NCBI GenBank assembly: GCA_039797295.1
Contig: JBDKID010000003.1
Span: forward strand, 27,502-91,501
Origin: Pseudomonadota bacterium
GTDB taxonomy: Bacteria > Pseudomonadota > Gammaproteobacteria > Thiotrichales > Thiotrichaceae
Reading direction: 5' to 3'
Length of the DNA: 64,000 nt
This document shows positions 36,235 to 41,723 of this stretch, piece after piece (positions within the stretch are counted from its first letter, which is position 1; each line of letters opens with the position of its first letter). The position numbers and the translations under genes are program-made. A model generated the notes under the pieces. The model saw only the letters and a list, made by a program, of their open reading frames with translations, was not told the DNA's origin and did no database searches.

Positions 36235-36269
36235 ACTTGTGCCGCAACGGGACTAGAAAGAAGTCAAAC

Positions 36270-37655
36270 ATGTTCGAGAATTTAAGTGAACGTCTTTCGC
36301 AGACGGTAAAAAAGCTACGCGGTCAAGCACGTTTGACCGACGACAATATTAAAGACGCGCTGCGTGATGTGCGAATGGCTCTGCTCGAAGCCGATGTGGC
36401 TTTGCCGGTAGTGCGCGAGTTCACCAACCGTGTGCGTGAGCGAGCCATTGGTCATGAGGTGTTAGAAAGCCTCACACCGGGGCAAGCATTTATCAAGGTC
36501 GTCAATGACGAGTTAGTCACCATTATGGGTAAGGCTAATGAAAATTTGTCATTGAATGCGCAACCGCCCGCCGTGATCTTAATGGCAGGTTTGCAAGGTG
36601 CGGGTAAAACCACCACGGTGGGCAAGTTAACCCGTTTCTTGAAAGAACGTCAGAATAAATCCGTCATGGTTGCCAGTTGTGACGTGTACCGTCCGGCGGC
36701 GATTAAACAGTTAGAAACCATTGCGGGACAAACGGGCGCGGTATTTTTCTCCAGCGAAGCCACACAAAAACCGGTCGACATTGCCAATGCTGCGGTAGCC
36801 GAAGCCAAGCGCAAGTACATGGATGTGCTGATTATCGACACGGCGGGGCGTTTGCACATTGACGCGCTCATGATGCAAGAAATTCAAGCCATCCATGCCG
36901 CAATTAACCCGATTGAAACGCTGTTCGTCGTTGACAGTATGACGGGGCAAGATGCGGCGAACACGGCGAAAGCTTTTGGTGATGCATTGCCTTTGACTGG
37001 TGTCGTACTGACGAAAGCGGATGGTGATGCACGCGGTGGTGCGGCATTGTCGGTGCGTCAGATTACGGGTAAGCCGATTAAATTCATTGGTGTCGGCGAA
37101 AAATTAGATGCTTTAGAACCTTTCCACCCAGACCGTATGGCCTCGCGGATTTTGGGCATGGGCGATGTGTTGAGCTTGATTGAAGAAGCGCAACGCAAAG
37201 TCGACCATAAAAAAGCGCAAGAACTCGCGAAAAAGTTGAATAAAGGGAAGGGATTCGACTTTGAAGATTTGCGTGATCAGATGCAGCAAATGCTCAAAAT
37301 GGGTGGCATGAGTGCATTGATGGATAAATTACCGGGAATGGGTAATGTGCCATCACATTTGAAAGAACAAGCGAATGATAAAGAAGTTCGCCGCATGATT
37401 GCGATTATTAATTCCATGACATTGGAAGAGCGGCGTAATCCCGATGTTATCAAGGCTTCGCGTAAACGGCGGATTGCGGCAGGTTGTGGTTTGCAAGTGC
37501 AAGATGTGAATCGTTTGTTGAAACAGCATCAGCAAATGAGTCGCGTGATGAAGCAGTTCTCTAAAGGTGGTGCATTACGCAAACTGATGGGGAAAATGGG
37601 TAATAAAATGCCACCAGGGGGCGGTTTTCCACCGATGGGCGGTTTCCCAGGTTAA
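36270..37655 (+). CDS. ffh: Signal recognition particle protein Ffh
   Basis: MFENLSERL, GLQGAGKTT, DTAGR, DGDARGG, Met-rich M domain. Confidence 0.99.
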   Translation: MFENLSERLSQTVKKLRGQARLTDDNIKDALRDVRMALLEADVALPVVREFTNRVRERAIGHEVLESLTPGQAFIKVVNDELVTIMGKANENLSLNAQPPAVILMAGLQGAGKTTTVGKLTRFLKERQNKSVMVASCDVYRPAAIKQLETIAGQTGAVFFSSEATQKPVDIANAAVAEAKRKYMDVLIIDTAGRLHIDALMMQEIQAIHAAINPIETLFVVDSMTGQDAANTAKAFGDALPLTGVVLTKADGDARGGAALSVRQITGKPIKFIGVGEKLDALEPFHPDRMASRILGMGDVLSLIEEAQRKVDHKKAQELAKKLNKGKGFDFEDLRDQMQQMLKMGGMSALMDKLPGMGNVPSHLKEQANDKEVRRMIAIINSMTLEERRNPDVIKASRKRRIAAGCGLQVQDVNRLLKQHQQMSRVMKQFSKGGALRKLMGKMGNKMPPGGGFPPMGGFPG

Positions 37656-37870
37656 TTTAATTGATTTTTGAAGCATTTAATGGGCTATCTTCGATTATTT
37701 GTGATAATCGGGGTTTGCCTGTTCTTTTATCTAGTTGTATGATGCGCATCGTCCAGAGATTTCCGTGAGTCATACGAACGGGGTCGATGCATTCAATCTC
37801 TTGGATGTTAGTGCATTGTTTGTGCTAATGTGGCTTTTCCCTTTCCTTATATCGTGAGAGAGTTTGAACT

Positions 37871-38170
37871 ATGAAAATGAAATCGCAATTTGCTATCGCT
37901 GGCTTGCTGTTCGCTGGTCTGTTGGCAACTGGTTGCAGCCAACAACAAGCTGCTGGTAGCCAACAACAAGCTGCTGGTAGCCAACAACAAGCTGCTACTC
38001 CAGCTCCTGCTGCTCCTGCTGCTCCTGCTGCTCCAGCACACGCTGCTCCAGCTCCACGTCCAGCTGCTCCAGCTCCAGTAGTTCCTCATGTTAAAGCTAA
38101 AGGCAACTACAAAGGTCCAGTCGCAATTGCGCCAGCTTCTAAAGCTGCACTGAAACAATACCAAAAGTAA
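37871..38170 (+). CDS. Small lipoprotein paralog 1 (99 aa; SQQQAAG repeats, Pro/Ala spacer, VKAKGNYKG module, ends QYQK)
   Basis: Lipobox LATG-C22, SD GAGAG, narrow codon choice (GCT, CCA/CCT, CAA, AAA), own terminator. Confidence 0.9.
   Translation: MKMKSQFAIAGLLFAGLLATGCSQQQAAGSQQQAAGSQQQAATPAPAAPAAPAAPAHAAPAPRPAAPAPVVPHVKAKGNYKGPVAIAPASKAALKQYQK
37937..37996 (+). repeat. 21-bp tandem repeat (2 full + 18 bp) encoding SQQQAAG
   Basis: AGCCAACAACAAGCTGCTGGT at 37937 and 37958, partial at 37979. Confidence 0.95.
38003..38029 (+). repeat. 9-bp tandem repeat x3 encoding APA
   Basis: GCTCCTGCT at 38003, 38012, 38021. Confidence 0.9.
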
Positions 38171-38212
38171 TTGTTTCGTGGACACGGCAACCTTTTAGGA
38201 TGCAGTAGCCAG

Positions 38213-38244
38213 AAAGCCTCTTGAACTCAAGAGGCTTTTTTTTT
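38213..38244 (+). terminator. Intrinsic terminator after lipoprotein 1
   Basis: AAAGCCTCTTG-AACT-CAAGAGGCTTT followed by T tract. Confidence 0.92.
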
Positions 38245-38393
38245 GCCTTGAAGTATGGAATCTGTACACCATTGGTCGGCGTTTAAGTGCGTTTTGTGCT
38301 ACATATTGGTGTGTAGCAATTAAGGAAATGACGCTTAAACGCTACACTGTATAAACTTACTGACTTTTTAGGCAATAAATTGAGGCTAAAGCC

Positions 38394-38714
38394 ATGGAAA
38401 TGAAGTCCAAATTGACTCTTGCGGCGTTATTGTGTATCGGTTTGCTGGCGACTGGTTGTAGTCAACAACAAGCTGCTATGGGTAGCCAACAAATGACACA
38501 ACAGCAAGCTTGTGACTGCAATAAAGAAAAACCAGTTACACCACCACCTGCTGTGCCTGTGAAACCACATTTACCACCGCCGGTAAAACGTCCACCACCA
38601 CCAGTGCAACCTGTTACCCCTGTCGTTCCTAAAGTGAAAGCCAAAGGTAACTACAAAGGTGCAGTGGCGATGGATCCATCTTCCAAAGCCGTGATGCAGC
38701 AATATCAGCATTAA
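38394..38714 (+). CDS. Small lipoprotein paralog 2 (106 aa; CDC, polyproline spacer, VKAKGNYKG module, ends QYQH)
   Basis: Lipobox LATG-C22, SD GAGG, clear paralog of 37871 gene. Confidence 0.9.
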   Translation: MEMKSKLTLAALLCIGLLATGCSQQQAAMGSQQMTQQQACDCNKEKPVTPPPAVPVKPHLPPPVKRPPPPVQPVTPVVPKVKAKGNYKGAVAMDPSSKAVMQQYQH

Positions 38715-38730
38715 TCGCTAGGTATTGCAT

Positions 38731-38763
38731 AAAACCCTTGCCGTTAACGACAAGGGTTTTTTT
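38731..38763 (+). terminator. Intrinsic terminator after lipoprotein 2
   Basis: AAAACCCTTG-10 nt-CAAGGGTTTT plus further Ts. Confidence 0.92.
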
Positions 38764-38981
38764 GTTTGAATTTTTACGAAAATCCATGCAACCTATTGCA
38801 TGGCATGACTTTGCACCGCATGGACGTTTATGCCGTGAATTAATGAGTGGTGTCGCTTAACGGCTTTTCACAAGGATTTGTGCTAAATTTGACCATTGTG
38901 TCCTATGAAGTCAATGTGACTTCTTTGCTACACTTTAATTGGCCGAGTGCTATCCCTTTAACAATGAAAGAGACCAAGACG

Positions 38982-39371
38982 ATGAAAATCAAATCTCACC
39001 TCACGCTTGCAACCCTGATCGTAGCTGGCATGTTCGCTACTGGCTGCCAACAATTAAGCCAACAAACGGCTGGTGCAGGTCAACAACAAACTGCTGCTCC
39101 AACTGAAACGAAGAAAGATGATGTGAAGCAACCTGTTGCTACTGGTAATGCACATACTCACCCAGCAGTTCCAGCTTGCACGAACTCCATTACACATAGC
39201 CATCCGTTCACTGATCCAAACCATACTCATCACTATAGCTGCAAACCGGGCGTAGCTCACAAAGGTGCAGGTCCTGCTGTTCCTCATGTTAAAGCGAAAG
39301 GCAACTACAAAGGTCCAGTCGCGATGGATAAAGCTTCTCAATCTGCATTGAAACAATATCAACAAAAATAA
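38982..39371 (+). CDS. Small lipoprotein paralog 3 (129 aa; His/Cys module, VKAKGNYKG module, ends QYQQK)
   Basis: Start reassigned from 38847 to 38982 so the lipobox FATG-C again falls at Cys22. Confidence 0.9.
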   Translation: MKIKSHLTLATLIVAGMFATGCQQLSQQTAGAGQQQTAAPTETKKDDVKQPVATGNAHTHPAVPACTNSITHSHPFTDPNHTHHYSCKPGVAHKGAGPAVPHVKAKGNYKGPVAMDKASQSALKQYQQK

Positions 39372-39432
39372 TCTTGTTGGTACGCGCAGTACATTGTTAA
39401 TCTTGTGAAAAGTTGACAATAAGTTTTGCATG

Positions 39433-39466
39433 AATGCCCAACCGCGATGAGGTTGGGCATTTTTTT
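39433..39466 (+). terminator. Intrinsic terminator after lipoprotein 3
   Basis: AATGCCCAACC-7 nt-GGTTGGGCATT plus T tract. Confidence 0.92.
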
Positions 39467-39614
39467 GGTTGAAATTCAAGATAAGGCAAATTACGCTAGG
39501 CATCTTTGGGAACTTATGGGCATGTTCTCAAGTCAGGGCTGTTATAAGCGTGAACCTGGCAGGTCTTCACCTATCGAGTGTTCTTCTGGTTTAACTACAT
39601 CAAGTGCAAGTTTC

Positions 39615-40868
39615 ATGAAAAAGTTTTTTAGCCTAGTGCTTTTGCTTACTGCCTCTATGTTGATGCCTTCGTTGGCATCTGCCGAGGTTTGGCCTAATGA
39701 GAATACGTGGGATGATTCCTGGGAAGCTCGTTACCGTGATTGGGTGCGTACCAGTTGGAAAGATGACATTTTCATGGATTCATCTAAGCCCATTTATTAC
39801 AAGTTCGAGAACGATTGTGCTGACGCTGTTTACATGATGCGTTTAATCTTCTCTTACGAGAACCGCTTACCATTTGCGATTAACAACCGTGATAAAGCGG
39901 GCAAGTTGATCAACAATAGCCTGAACAGTTGGGACAGCCTCGCGCCACCACAGCGGGTTCGCCAGTTCATGAATTATGTTGCTGACATGACCAGCAGTGC
40001 TTCTTTACCGAGTGATACTTACCCGGTTGCACTGAATGACATTAAGCCCGGTGATATTTATGTAGCACCCGGTGTGCATTCTTATCAAATCGTAGAAGTC
40101 ACGGATGCTGGGATTGCTGAGGTCATGGCTTCGACGACACCTAAACAAGCACGTTATTTGCTGCGCACCCCATCATTCCCGTTCTATATTCCTGAAGATA
40201 AACATTTAGGTGATGGTTATCGTCGTTTCAAAGCACCGCAGAACATAATGAAACCTGCGAATGCGCAACCGGGTTATAGCGAAGAGCAGTTCCAATTGGC
40301 GGCAGAGTTGAATGGTGATTACGTTGCATTTACTGACATCATTTCTAAAAAATTAGGACATCGTGAAGAACGTCCTGATGAGAAAACCCAACGCTTATTG
40401 TTAGCATTGTGCATGTACGCGAATGATCGCAGTGTGTATGTCTATGACGCTTTGTTCTATCTGCAAAAGATTCGTAATGAAGGCCGCCATTGCATGAATG
40501 CGAAAGAATACGACGATCATTCCACCCCAGGGCGTGATAAGCGCTTGAAAATGTTCTTCGATTCCATTCGTCGTCATTTAGATCGAGTTGGACGTTTTGA
40601 TCCACGCTCACAACCTGCACGTTGGGCAAAAGCGGTATTCTCTAATGATCAACCACCACCACAAGAAATGCAGAATTTGAATAATTTCTGTCAGGTGCAA
40701 ATGACGTTGGTCGATGAAGATGCACATGAGCCTAACTATTTCATGTCATTGCGTGAATTACGGCAAAATGTTGATGCGGGTACATTGAGTTCCGATCCAC
40801 ATGCGTCATTAGAATATCGTTGGGGTATTGTGAAAGAACCGTTTGTCGCGGACTGTCCAACTTACTAA
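39615..40868 (+). CDS. Secreted hypothetical protein (417 aa) with putative papain-like Cys/His pair
   Basis: Signal peptide MKKFFSLVLLLTASMLMPSLASA from ATG 39615; DCADAVY, IKPGDIYV and GVHSYQIV motifs; function inferred. Confidence 0.75.
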   Translation: MKKFFSLVLLLTASMLMPSLASAEVWPNENTWDDSWEARYRDWVRTSWKDDIFMDSSKPIYYKFENDCADAVYMMRLIFSYENRLPFAINNRDKAGKLINNSLNSWDSLAPPQRVRQFMNYVADMTSSASLPSDTYPVALNDIKPGDIYVAPGVHSYQIVEVTDAGIAEVMASTTPKQARYLLRTPSFPFYIPEDKHLGDGYRRFKAPQNIMKPANAQPGYSEEQFQLAAELNGDYVAFTDIISKKLGHREERPDEKTQRLLLALCMYANDRSVYVYDALFYLQKIRNEGRHCMNAKEYDDHSTPGRDKRLKMFFDSIRRHLDRVGRFDPRSQPARWAKAVFSNDQPPPQEMQNLNNFCQVQMTLVDEDAHEPNYFMSLRELRQNVDAGTLSSDPHASLEYRWGIVKEPFVADCPTY

Positions 40869-41012: not shown

Positions 41013-41723
41013 ATGAGTAGTTTCTTAAAAATCTCAGCCTATCTGGTATTCGGGCTGGGTCTTGGTATCGTCAGTGGCTGTTCCAGTCAAAATCAGAAAA
41101 CTGAACAAGCTGTTGCAACACCGATGCAACGTTCTAGTCCAGCTCGGACGAGTGTAGCAACACCAGAACGCTTGTCTTATGCCGCATTGGATCGTCTACG
41201 GCATCGTGTGGTTTACAATGGCACGTACATGCCGATTGCTTATCCAAATGGTGATGTGCCGGGCAATATTGGTGTTTGTACGGATACGGTGATTCGTTCG
41301 TATCGTAAGTTAGGTGTGGACTTACAGCGTTTGGTGCATGAAGACATGGAACGCAATTTCTACGCTTATCCTAACTTGCCAAAATGGGGATTGAATGCGC
41401 CCGACTCGAATATTGATCACCGCCGAGTACATAATTTGAAGGCTTACTTCACACGTCATGGGGGGCGACTGCCTGTGACAGGTGAGCCTAGCGATTACCG
41501 CCCCGGCGACTTAGTAACGTGGAGTCTGGGTGGCGACCAAGAACACATCGGGATTGTGGTGGATCGTAAATCATCAGCCGATCCTGACCGTTACTTGATT
41601 GTGCACAACATCGGTGAGGGTGAAAAAATGGAAGATGTGCTGTTCCAGATGCCAATTTCGGGGCATTACCGTTACTTCCCCGGCTACGTACCTTCCGCTG
41701 CGCAATACGCTGCTGCTAATTAA
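41013..41723 (+). CDS. DUF1287 (YijF-like) lipoprotein, NlpC/P60-like Cys/His motifs
   Basis: Lipobox VSG-C23; YPNGDVP...GVCTDTVIRSYR, DSNIDHRRV, PGDLVTW, HIGIV, VHNIG. Confidence 0.88.
   Translation: MSSFLKISAYLVFGLGLGIVSGCSSQNQKTEQAVATPMQRSSPARTSVATPERLSYAALDRLRHRVVYNGTYMPIAYPNGDVPGNIGVCTDTVIRSYRKLGVDLQRLVHEDMERNFYAYPNLPKWGLNAPDSNIDHRRVHNLKAYFTRHGGRLPVTGEPSDYRPGDLVTWSLGGDQEHIGIVVDRKSSADPDRYLIVHNIGEGEKMEDVLFQMPISGHYRYFPGYVPSAAQYAAAN

Follow-up and report, generated by a model that had tools for sequence, protein, structure and literature searches.

What do three small lipoproteins with unlike middles and one shared tail do in the cell envelope, and where does this tail come from? The question is raised by a locus of a Thiothrix bacterium (family Thiotrichaceae; GenBank assembly GCA_039797295.1, contig JBDKID010000003.1, positions 27,502 to 91,501 of the forward strand), a stretch of 64,000 nucleotides that we call the window and whose first letter is position 1. 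Three open reading frames (ORFs), starting at 37871, 38394 and 38982, lie there in tandem on the same strand, and each encodes a small lipoprotein precursor:

37871..38170, forward strand, gene 1 (protein W1): 99-residue lipoprotein precursor with signal peptide, Cys22, Gln/Ala/Pro spacer and tail
38394..38714, forward strand, gene 2 (protein W2): 106-residue lipoprotein precursor with CDC motif, polyproline spacer and tail
38982..39371, forward strand, gene 3 (protein W3): 129-residue lipoprotein precursor with His/Cys motif and tail

An initial annotation, made from the letters of the sequence, had described this trio with signal peptides of 21 residues, a cysteine at position 22 and a non-aspartate residue behind it, and had proposed a layout of lipid anchor, variable spacer and conserved tip. 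The ORFs and their lipoboxes show that the trio is real. The tip is, by sequence comparison, a cut-down relic of the PG_binding_1 domain (PF01471). It is under active study how the outer membrane is attached to the wall in diderm bacteria that have no Braun's lipoprotein, and we give an even chance to the reading in which W1, W2 and W3 would be abundant tethers or spacers between the outer membrane and peptidoglycan, binding the latter non-covalently.

Each precursor begins with M-K/E-x-K-S and a hydrophobic stretch, followed by L-A-T-G-C or F-A-T-G-C. The lipoboxes of W1, W2 and W3 read ...LLATGC, ...LLATGC and ...MFATGC, with a signal peptide of 21 residues and the cysteine at position 22. 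We applied a PROSITE-type lipobox rule (positive n-region, hydrophobic h-region, [LIVMFWSTAG]2-[LIVMFYSTAGCQ]-[AGS]-C, and six uncharged preceding positions). All three proteins conform to it, as do 128 of the 134 carriers of the same tail module that we collected. The mature proteins are 78, 85 and 108 residues long. The length of W3 is counted from the ATG, and a longer frame with a GTG start at 38847 is unlikely. The lipobox predicts lipidation at Cys22. The residues at position +2 are S, S and Q, none of them Asp. Avoidance of Asp at +2 for outer-membrane sorting is an enterobacterial rule and, by analogy with it, the three proteins would be sorted to the outer membrane.

The last 30 residues are near-identical among the three proteins and share a VKAKGNYKG core. 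The three-way alignment has 38 invariant columns, confirming the conserved stretch of about 30 residues that had been pointed out before. The copies are listed here with their scores on a profile of this module and on a profile of the corresponding tails from sister genera, which are presented below:

38078..38167, forward strand, gene 1 tail module (residues 70-99, VVPHVKAKGNYKGPVAIAPASKAALKQYQK): 62.4 bits on the module profile, 27.9 bits on the sister-genus tail profile
38622..38711, forward strand, gene 2 tail module (residues 77-106): 68 bits on the module profile, 24.5 bits on the sister-genus tail profile
39279..39368, forward strand, gene 3 tail module (residues 100-129): 66.4 bits on the module profile, 32.0 bits on the sister-genus tail profile

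The module is strictly C-terminal: across the 134 carriers, the protein ends 22-29 residues past the V of VKAKG. Its lysines K6, K8 and K12 are invariant or nearly so. A basic, extended VKAKGNYKGPV segment is followed by one amphipathic helix, which AlphaFold2 (AF2), run with family alignments, predicts at residues 88-98 of W1 and 117-128 of W3, with a predicted local distance difference test (pLDDT) score of about 70. The models contain no globular domain in W1 or W3 and the spacer is disordered, in line with the layout of anchor, spacer and tip. Between the tails of W1 and W2, 8 of the 27 compared codons show synonymous differences only, and three of these codons fall inside the VKAKGNYKG core (GTT/GTG, GCT/GCC and GGC/GGT). 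Hence, the identity of the core reflects purifying selection on the protein and not recent copying.

Scans of W1, W2 and W3 against Pfam and NCBIfam gave no family at E<=10, only noise, so that at the level of direct scans the earlier remark that the tip has no named domain stands. The module profile, searched against the Protein Data Bank (PDB), matched designed DPBB proteins only, over 12 residues, which we rejected as spurious. The first lead came from three distant homologues found in metagenomes (P0051, P0053 and P0054), which share the N-terminus and the His/Cys motif with the gene-3 family. Their C-terminus, '...LQAKLKAKGYYKGPIDG..T..AL..F', scores 30.8-36.8 bits on PF01471, above the threshold, over positions 4 to 37/41 of the model. 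A similar state is found at the same locus in related genera. In four genera lacking the module (g2, g4, g6 and g7), the gene directly upstream of a 416-residue gene, in the ffh-rpsP interval, is a lipoprotein. These sister-genus orthologues share the ...ATGCSQQ start, Gln-containing repeats and one or two His/Cys motifs, and their tail reads 'VDVxALQxKLKAKGYYKGPIDGVVGxGTRSALQxFMxR'. Gene 3, which also lies directly upstream of the 416-residue gene, is the positional orthologue of this PG_binding_1-tailed lipoprotein.

The sister tails are recognised by PF01471 itself: six of them score 29.8-39.5 bits (cut-off 23), covering only positions 2/4 to 37/41 of the 57 in the model. In the PDB, their profile finds peptidoglycan-binding domains of solved structure, in SleB (6tci, E 4.7e-10, and 4fet), SltB3 (5ao8), a lytic transglycosylase (7qvd) and an L,D-transpeptidase (4lpq). 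A profile made solely from nine sister-type tails scores four modules at 22.9-32.0 bits, in one register and with a 2-residue gap, while the best of 2,100 composition-matched shuffles reaches 8.3 bits on it. The reverse search gives 12.8-17.6 bits, and a search of the genome with the sister-tail profile gives gene 3 30.2 bits. Both types of tail align column for column in MAFFT, and intermediates between them exist, e.g., KGSISGVMDADTKAALQAYQ versus KGPVA--MDPASKAALKQYQ.

The two types of tail also have complementary (vicariant) distributions across genera. PG_binding_1-type tails (75-88 bits) are restricted to g2, g4, g6, g7 and g8; none was found in g1, g3 or g5. All 16 genomes of the window's genus have the module (2-4 copies each, usually in tandem), as do g3 and g5 (also 2-4 copies), and other genera give weak matches under 30 bits at most. 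Because of the positional orthologues, the profile scores and these complementary distributions, we conclude that the module descends from an orthologous PG_binding_1 domain, one that had earlier been truncated and had no helix 3, and that it has been shortened further. It belongs to PF01471 by descent, and not by the score of the hidden Markov model (HMM), by fold or by motif. In substance, the tip is thus not without a named relative. This descent narrows the 'tether or adaptor' suggested in the initial annotation to a peptidoglycan-directed tail.

The module family as such is narrow. Word-indexed searches returned 55 and 90 relatives, of which all the named ones come from Thiothrix or from an unclassified gammaproteobacterial metagenome-assembled genome (MAG). 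A search of 1.84 billion representative proteins with the 30-position tail profile (HMMER) returned only 30 clusters at E<=1e-3. When one genome per species was scanned, the carriers were Thiothrix, Thiolinea, Thiofilum flexile, 'Thiothrix' eikelboomii and unclassified MAGs of Thiotrichaceae or Pseudomonadota only. Its range is limited to Thiothrix, Thiolinea and Thiofilum. Most Thiothrix genomes have genes 1 and 3 in tandem and in some, this one among them, gene 2 lies in between. We found no mention of these proteins in a search of the literature.

A complete PG_binding_1 fold is a three-helix bundle of about 57 residues. The module keeps around 30 of the 57 positions of PF01471, namely helix 2, the loop before it and the last part of helix 1. 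In place of the first half of helix 1 there is a proline-rich linker, and all of helix 3 is missing. With one helix remaining, the module cannot form the canonical PG_binding_1 fold.

A fourth module carrier in the genome (contig C27, L009:1240-1593) gives a hint at the likely target. It has a signal peptide of the signal peptidase I (SPI) type, a small 2-Cys domain, a Pro-rich linker and then the module. The neighbouring gene (L009:1796-2452) encodes a paralogue with 68% identity over the first 60 residues (E 2e-22), which, after the linker, continues into an OmpA_C domain (PF00691, 68.9 bits; Bordetella-type OmpA, 119 bits). The pair looks like a natural swap of C-terminal domains. Hence, the module fills the slot of a classical peptidoglycan-binding domain.

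The proteins had also been called abundant, and for this the support is indirect. We computed the codon adaptation index (CAI) relative to 27 ribosomal-protein genes of the same genome and ranked the genes among 1,458 long ORFs. W1 reaches 0.894 (100th percentile), exceeding all 1,458 long ORFs and every ribosomal-protein gene. W3 reaches 0.804 (99.9th percentile), W2 0.754 (98.3rd percentile) and the fourth module copy 0.766. For comparison, the genome median is 0.60, the value of ffh is 0.60 and the median of the ribosomal-protein genes is 0.74. Considering these values together with the terminator that each gene has of its own and the conserved promoter-like blocks (both described further below), W1, W2 and W3 are probably very highly expressed, abundant proteins.

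The middles of the three proteins had been described as unrelated low-complexity spacers. This fits gene 1, whose spacer is the only true low-complexity middle of the three and varies in length between species. It contains the following repeat:

37937..37996, forward strand, perfect 21-bp tandem repeat (2.9 copies) encoding SQQQAAG: Tandem Repeats Finder, 100% matches, score 120

The repeat sits just past the lipobox, where the sister-genus orthologues have other Gln-containing repeats (GGSQV, SSQNVD and AGGQQV). From these comparisons, a Gln-rich repeat after the lipid anchor is a conserved feature, and its sequence is not. The description does not fit genes 2 and 3. The CDC of gene 2 is one instance of a C-x(1,2)-C motif seen again in its orthologues, with DCSKC in related genera, and gene 3 has a conserved motif of 30 residues:

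39153..39242, forward strand, His/Cys motif of gene 3 (residues 58-87, HTHPAVPACTNSITHSHPFTDPNHTHHYSC): putative metal-binding site

The motif reads H-x-H-x3-P-x-C-x5-H-x-H-x4-P-x-H-x-H-x-Y-x-C. In 62 homologues, six of its positions are invariant (H58, H60, H72, H74, H83 and Y85) and six are near-invariant, including P64, C66, P79, H81 and C87. It occurs once or twice in module carriers, and 1-3 times in lipoproteins or SH3_3-domain proteins that lack the tail. We found no match to it in Pfam, NCBIfam or the PDB, and the AF2 pLDDT over it is about 70-77. The stretch is probably a metal site and a candidate for an undescribed periplasmic metal-binding repeat. The unit, which is also found in P0118, P0120 and P0122-P0126, can be written H-x-H-P-x3-C-T-x-S-x-T-H-x-H-P-x(4,5)-H-x-H-x-Y-x-C.

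How might such proteins work? After export with a Sec signal peptide of the signal peptidase II (SPII) type, they would be lipidated at Cys22, and their probable destination is the inner leaflet of the outer membrane. Starting at the lipid anchor, a disordered Gln/Ala/Pro-rich spacer of variable length would extend into the periplasm, carrying in gene 3 the additional His/Cys motif and its probable metal site. At the far end, the basic remnant of the tail would most likely contact peptidoglycan non-covalently. A set of lipoproteins differing in reach could in this way tether or space the two layers in a genome that has no Braun/OprI lipoprotein.

The weak step of this proposal is that the cut-down tail would still bind peptidoglycan; the gene structure, the lipobox, the descent from PF01471, the strict C-terminal position, the restriction to three genera and the codon bias are observations. 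Several results weigh against it. W1, W2 and W3 have no direct match to PF01471 (cut-off 23 bits), even at E<=10, and hhalign, when comparing the module with six PG_binding_1 domains of the same genome, returns a probability of 0.9%, although in the correct register. One of three helices is left in the module, and the hydrophobic face of this helix would be exposed. A D-G-(Pho)2-G-K/N-G/N-T motif has been reported for experimentally confirmed binding domains (PMC3352856). The sister tails retain it as DGVVGPAT or DGIVGPGT. In the modules of W1, W2 and W3 it is deleted or replaced, with a 2-residue deletion (VA--MDKAS, VA--IAPAS and VA--MDPSS). Even the full PG_binding_1 domain is called 'putative' in its Pfam name. 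The genome holds 10 OmpA_C-type domains, and therefore an extra tether is not obviously needed. Finally, CAI is noisy in short genes of skewed composition.

These losses are also the starting point of the alternative that survives best, which we nevertheless consider unlikely. The tail may have been repurposed, so that it no longer binds peptidoglycan and acts as a short linear motif or amphipathic helix, docking on a partner protein or associating with itself. In that case the lipoproteins would not be wall tethers, and would serve as adaptors or form a protein layer. This would account for two of the three helices having disappeared along with the canonical motif. The KAKGxYKG core is specific to the lineage and absent as a conserved feature from ordinary PG_binding_1 domains, and a strongly constrained element present in 2-4 copies per genome on different scaffolds resembles many portable binding tags. 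However, no partner has been identified, and the most obvious candidate, the co-located 416-residue protein, is found in all 8 genera, including those that lack the module. Moreover, a KAKGYYKG core is already present in the PF01471-positive tails of the sister genera, and the exchange of module and OmpA_C between paralogues points to the wall as the target.

A second alternative keeps the wall as the target and changes the bond. The proteins could be substrates of L,D-transpeptidases, with the C-terminal Lys or an invariant internal Lys linked to meso-diaminopimelic acid (meso-DAP), and would thus be functional replacements of Braun's lipoprotein. The genome encodes three YkuD-type L,D-transpeptidases and has no Lpp above the cut-off. 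In Dickeya, a 6-residue C-terminal 'Lpp box' ending in Lys (loose consensus S/RYTK, RTTK) suffices for covalent attachment (PMC12274547). W1 ends in ...YQK, W3 in ...YQQK and the fourth copy in ...YKK, 11 of the 12 gene-3 orthologues of the genus end in ...YQK, and the internal K6, K8 and K12 are conserved, as mentioned above. Yet, if 80 of the 134 family members end in Lys, the others end in R (24), Q (22), Y (4), E (2), H (1) or N (1), with W2 ending in His, and this variation speaks against a strict Lpp-like C-terminal Lys as a rule of the family. The sister-genus tails end in ...FMKR, ...YQAAH or ...YQSKN. YkuD enzymes are common and have other roles, and descent from a non-covalent binding domain requires no covalent step. 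We therefore hold covalent attachment to be improbable, and more so than a repurposed tail.

Still less probable in our view is that periplasmic metal handling is the primary function, with gene 3 and its orthologues being His/Cys metal binders parked at the wall and genes 1 and 2 being degenerate duplicates. It is true that no other part of the gene-3 family is as conserved as the His/Cys motif, that this motif occurs as 1-3 repeats in other, tail-less lipoproteins and that there is a resemblance between HxsA and the sister-genus orthologues (24-43 bits, which is less than the cut-off). But gene 1 has the highest codon adaptation of the genome, it is present in every genome of the genus that we examined and its tail is under purifying selection. 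Hence, it is not a decaying duplicate. Metal handling also leaves the tail unexplained and, for gene 3, is compatible with non-covalent tethering. Two further candidates can be dealt with briefly: a C-terminal sorting signal (PEP-CTERM, GlyGly-CTERM or sortase) is ruled out by a tail that is hydrophilic and has no transmembrane segment, and Gln-Lys cross-linking of the transglutaminase type, drawing on the Gln-rich N-terminal region, the Lys-rich tail, and DUF1287 and Cys/His neighbours, was rejected, as its support is co-location only.

Non-covalent tethering by the relic tail thus remains our preferred reading. In its boldest form, a single-helix leftover of PG_binding_1 of about 28 residues and without the motif would alone hold proteins on peptidoglycan, and no natural wall-binding tag would be smaller. 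In Thiothrix and its relatives, a graded set of such proteins (78, 85 and 108 mature residues) would replace Lpp as the most abundant envelope proteins and set and hold the distance between outer membrane and wall, with one member parking a His/Cys metal site at the wall. We put this forward tentatively, with clearly less confidence than the tethering itself. The family is lineage-specific and among the highest in the genome by codon usage, and its design is a different one, in which a disordered proline-rich spacer is combined with a binding domain reduced to a minimal relic. If the 30-residue tail still binds peptidoglycan, the bulk of the PG_binding_1 fold can be dispensed with, and the tail would serve as a wall-targeting tag of very small size. 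If it does not, this is a clean case of repurposing of a domain fragment, in which sister genera allow the ancestral state to be compared directly with the derived one at a single locus. As the family is narrow (about 30 clusters in 1.84 billion proteins), the impact is conceptual, not broad.

How do these proteins compare with known systems? With the PG_binding_1 domains of SleB (6tci/4fet), SltB3 (5ao8) and the binding domain of endolysin KZ144, the module aligns to ...L-x-x-x-G-Y-x-G-x-(loop)-T-x-x-A-L-x-x-F/Y-Q; in contrast to them, it ends a lipoprotein and is not carried by a wall hydrolase. Braun's Lpp and the Pseudomonas protein OprI (NF040598) share with the Thiothrix proteins a small size, top-class codon bias or abundance, monocistronic genes with a strong terminator, and the proposed link from outer membrane to wall, and many members of the Thiothrix family end in Y-x-K. 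The lipobox of OprI is of the LATGC type, as in the Thiothrix proteins. There is, however, no sequence homology: W1, W2 and W3 do not match NF040598, for which no protein of the genome scores above 17 bits (cut-off 43). The alanine-zipper coiled coil is also absent, a disordered Pro/Ala/Gln spacer (AF2) standing in its place, and the last residue varies within the family.

The logic of non-covalent tethering that we propose is that of Pal, of OmpA_C anchors and of the PA1041/Bordetella-OmpA family, whose members are small peptidoglycan-binding proteins. The member of this family beside the fourth carrier (L009:1853-2449) even shares with it the signal peptide, the small 2-Cys domain and the Pro-rich linker. 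The module differs in being a 30-residue relic of an unrelated fold, whereas OmpA_C has about 100 residues. HxsA (TIGR03979) has the same layout as the sister-genus orthologues, with a His-rich region and a PG_binding_1 C-terminus. Their scores on TIGR03979 (24-43 bits) are far below the cut-off of 121.65 bits, W3 does not match this family, and the His/Cys motif of the gene-3 family is not a His-Xaa-Ser repeat. Overall, a lipid anchor, a disordered spacer and a relic tail, multiplied, are a new variation on the known tethers between outer membrane and wall. Some relatives (P0006, P0007, P0024 and P0061) are named 'PBP1b-binding outer membrane lipoprotein LpoB' or 'outer membrane murein-binding lipoprotein Lpp' by JGI. 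Neither name has the backing of a family model, no LpoB family having appeared in the Pfam and NCBIfam scans of W1, W2 and W3, and both are probably low-complexity artefacts.

The array occupies the classic ffh-rpsP interval. Upstream lies ffh (36237-37655). Downstream are the 416-residue gene (39618-40868) and a DUF1287 lipoprotein gene (41013-41723), followed by rpsP-rimM-trmD-rplS. In a related genus, four module-bearing lipoprotein genes are interleaved with the 416-residue gene, followed by the DUF1287 gene and rpsP. The 416-residue protein is secreted, is found with 41-83% identity in all 8 genera and often has two copies. It has a weak match to DUF4846 only and no relative in the PDB; a Cys/His enzyme is suggested by the stretches ENDCADAVYMM and GVHSYQIVEV. 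The presence of this protein in genera that lack the module rules it out as a partner or attaching enzyme specific to the module. The DUF1287 lipoprotein (lipobox VSGC), encoded between the 416-residue gene and rpsP, has a homologue in a related genus that matches PF06940 at 215 bits and CHAP weakly. These matches point to an NlpC/P60-like fold, and the protein may act on the wall.

Each of the three lipoprotein genes is followed by an intrinsic terminator of its own, a stem-loop with a U-run, as the initial annotation had stated:

38211..38248, forward strand, gene 1 intrinsic terminator: 13-bp stem then T-run, dG -20.2 kcal/mol, z -3.0
38731..38766, forward strand, gene 2 intrinsic terminator: stem-loop then U-run, dG -15.6 kcal/mol, z -3.2
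39432..39469, forward strand, gene 3 intrinsic terminator: 12-bp stem then T-run, dG -20.2 kcal/mol, z -3.7

The terminator of gene 2 was missed by the pattern scan because its loop is longer than 8 nucleotides. Upstream of genes 1 and 3 we found promoter-like elements:

37715..37743, forward strand, predicted promoter-like site upstream of gene 1: TTGCCT, 17-nucleotide spacer, TATGAT (consensus scan)
38881..38888, forward strand, predicted extended -10-like element upstream of gene 3: TGCTAAAT, kept with its flanking blocks before gene-3 orthologues (12 genomes)

Across 12 genomes of the genus, the gene-1 orthologues are preceded by the conserved block GGGTTTGCCT...GTTGTATGATGCGC.

Genes 1 and 3 are preceded by leaders of around 100-120 nucleotides (within 37656-37870 and 38767-38981) that contain blocks conserved across 12 genomes, such as TTCCCTTTCC...AGAGAGTTTTACTACTATG and TTTGCTACAC...TTTCCCTTAAACAATGAAAGAGACCAAGACGATG. 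Rfam matched no RNA family in the region, leaders included. These conserved leaders may be regulatory or mRNA-stabilising 5' untranslated regions. Some gene callers mistranslate them as spurious N-terminal extensions of the proteins (P0016, P0032 and P0056).

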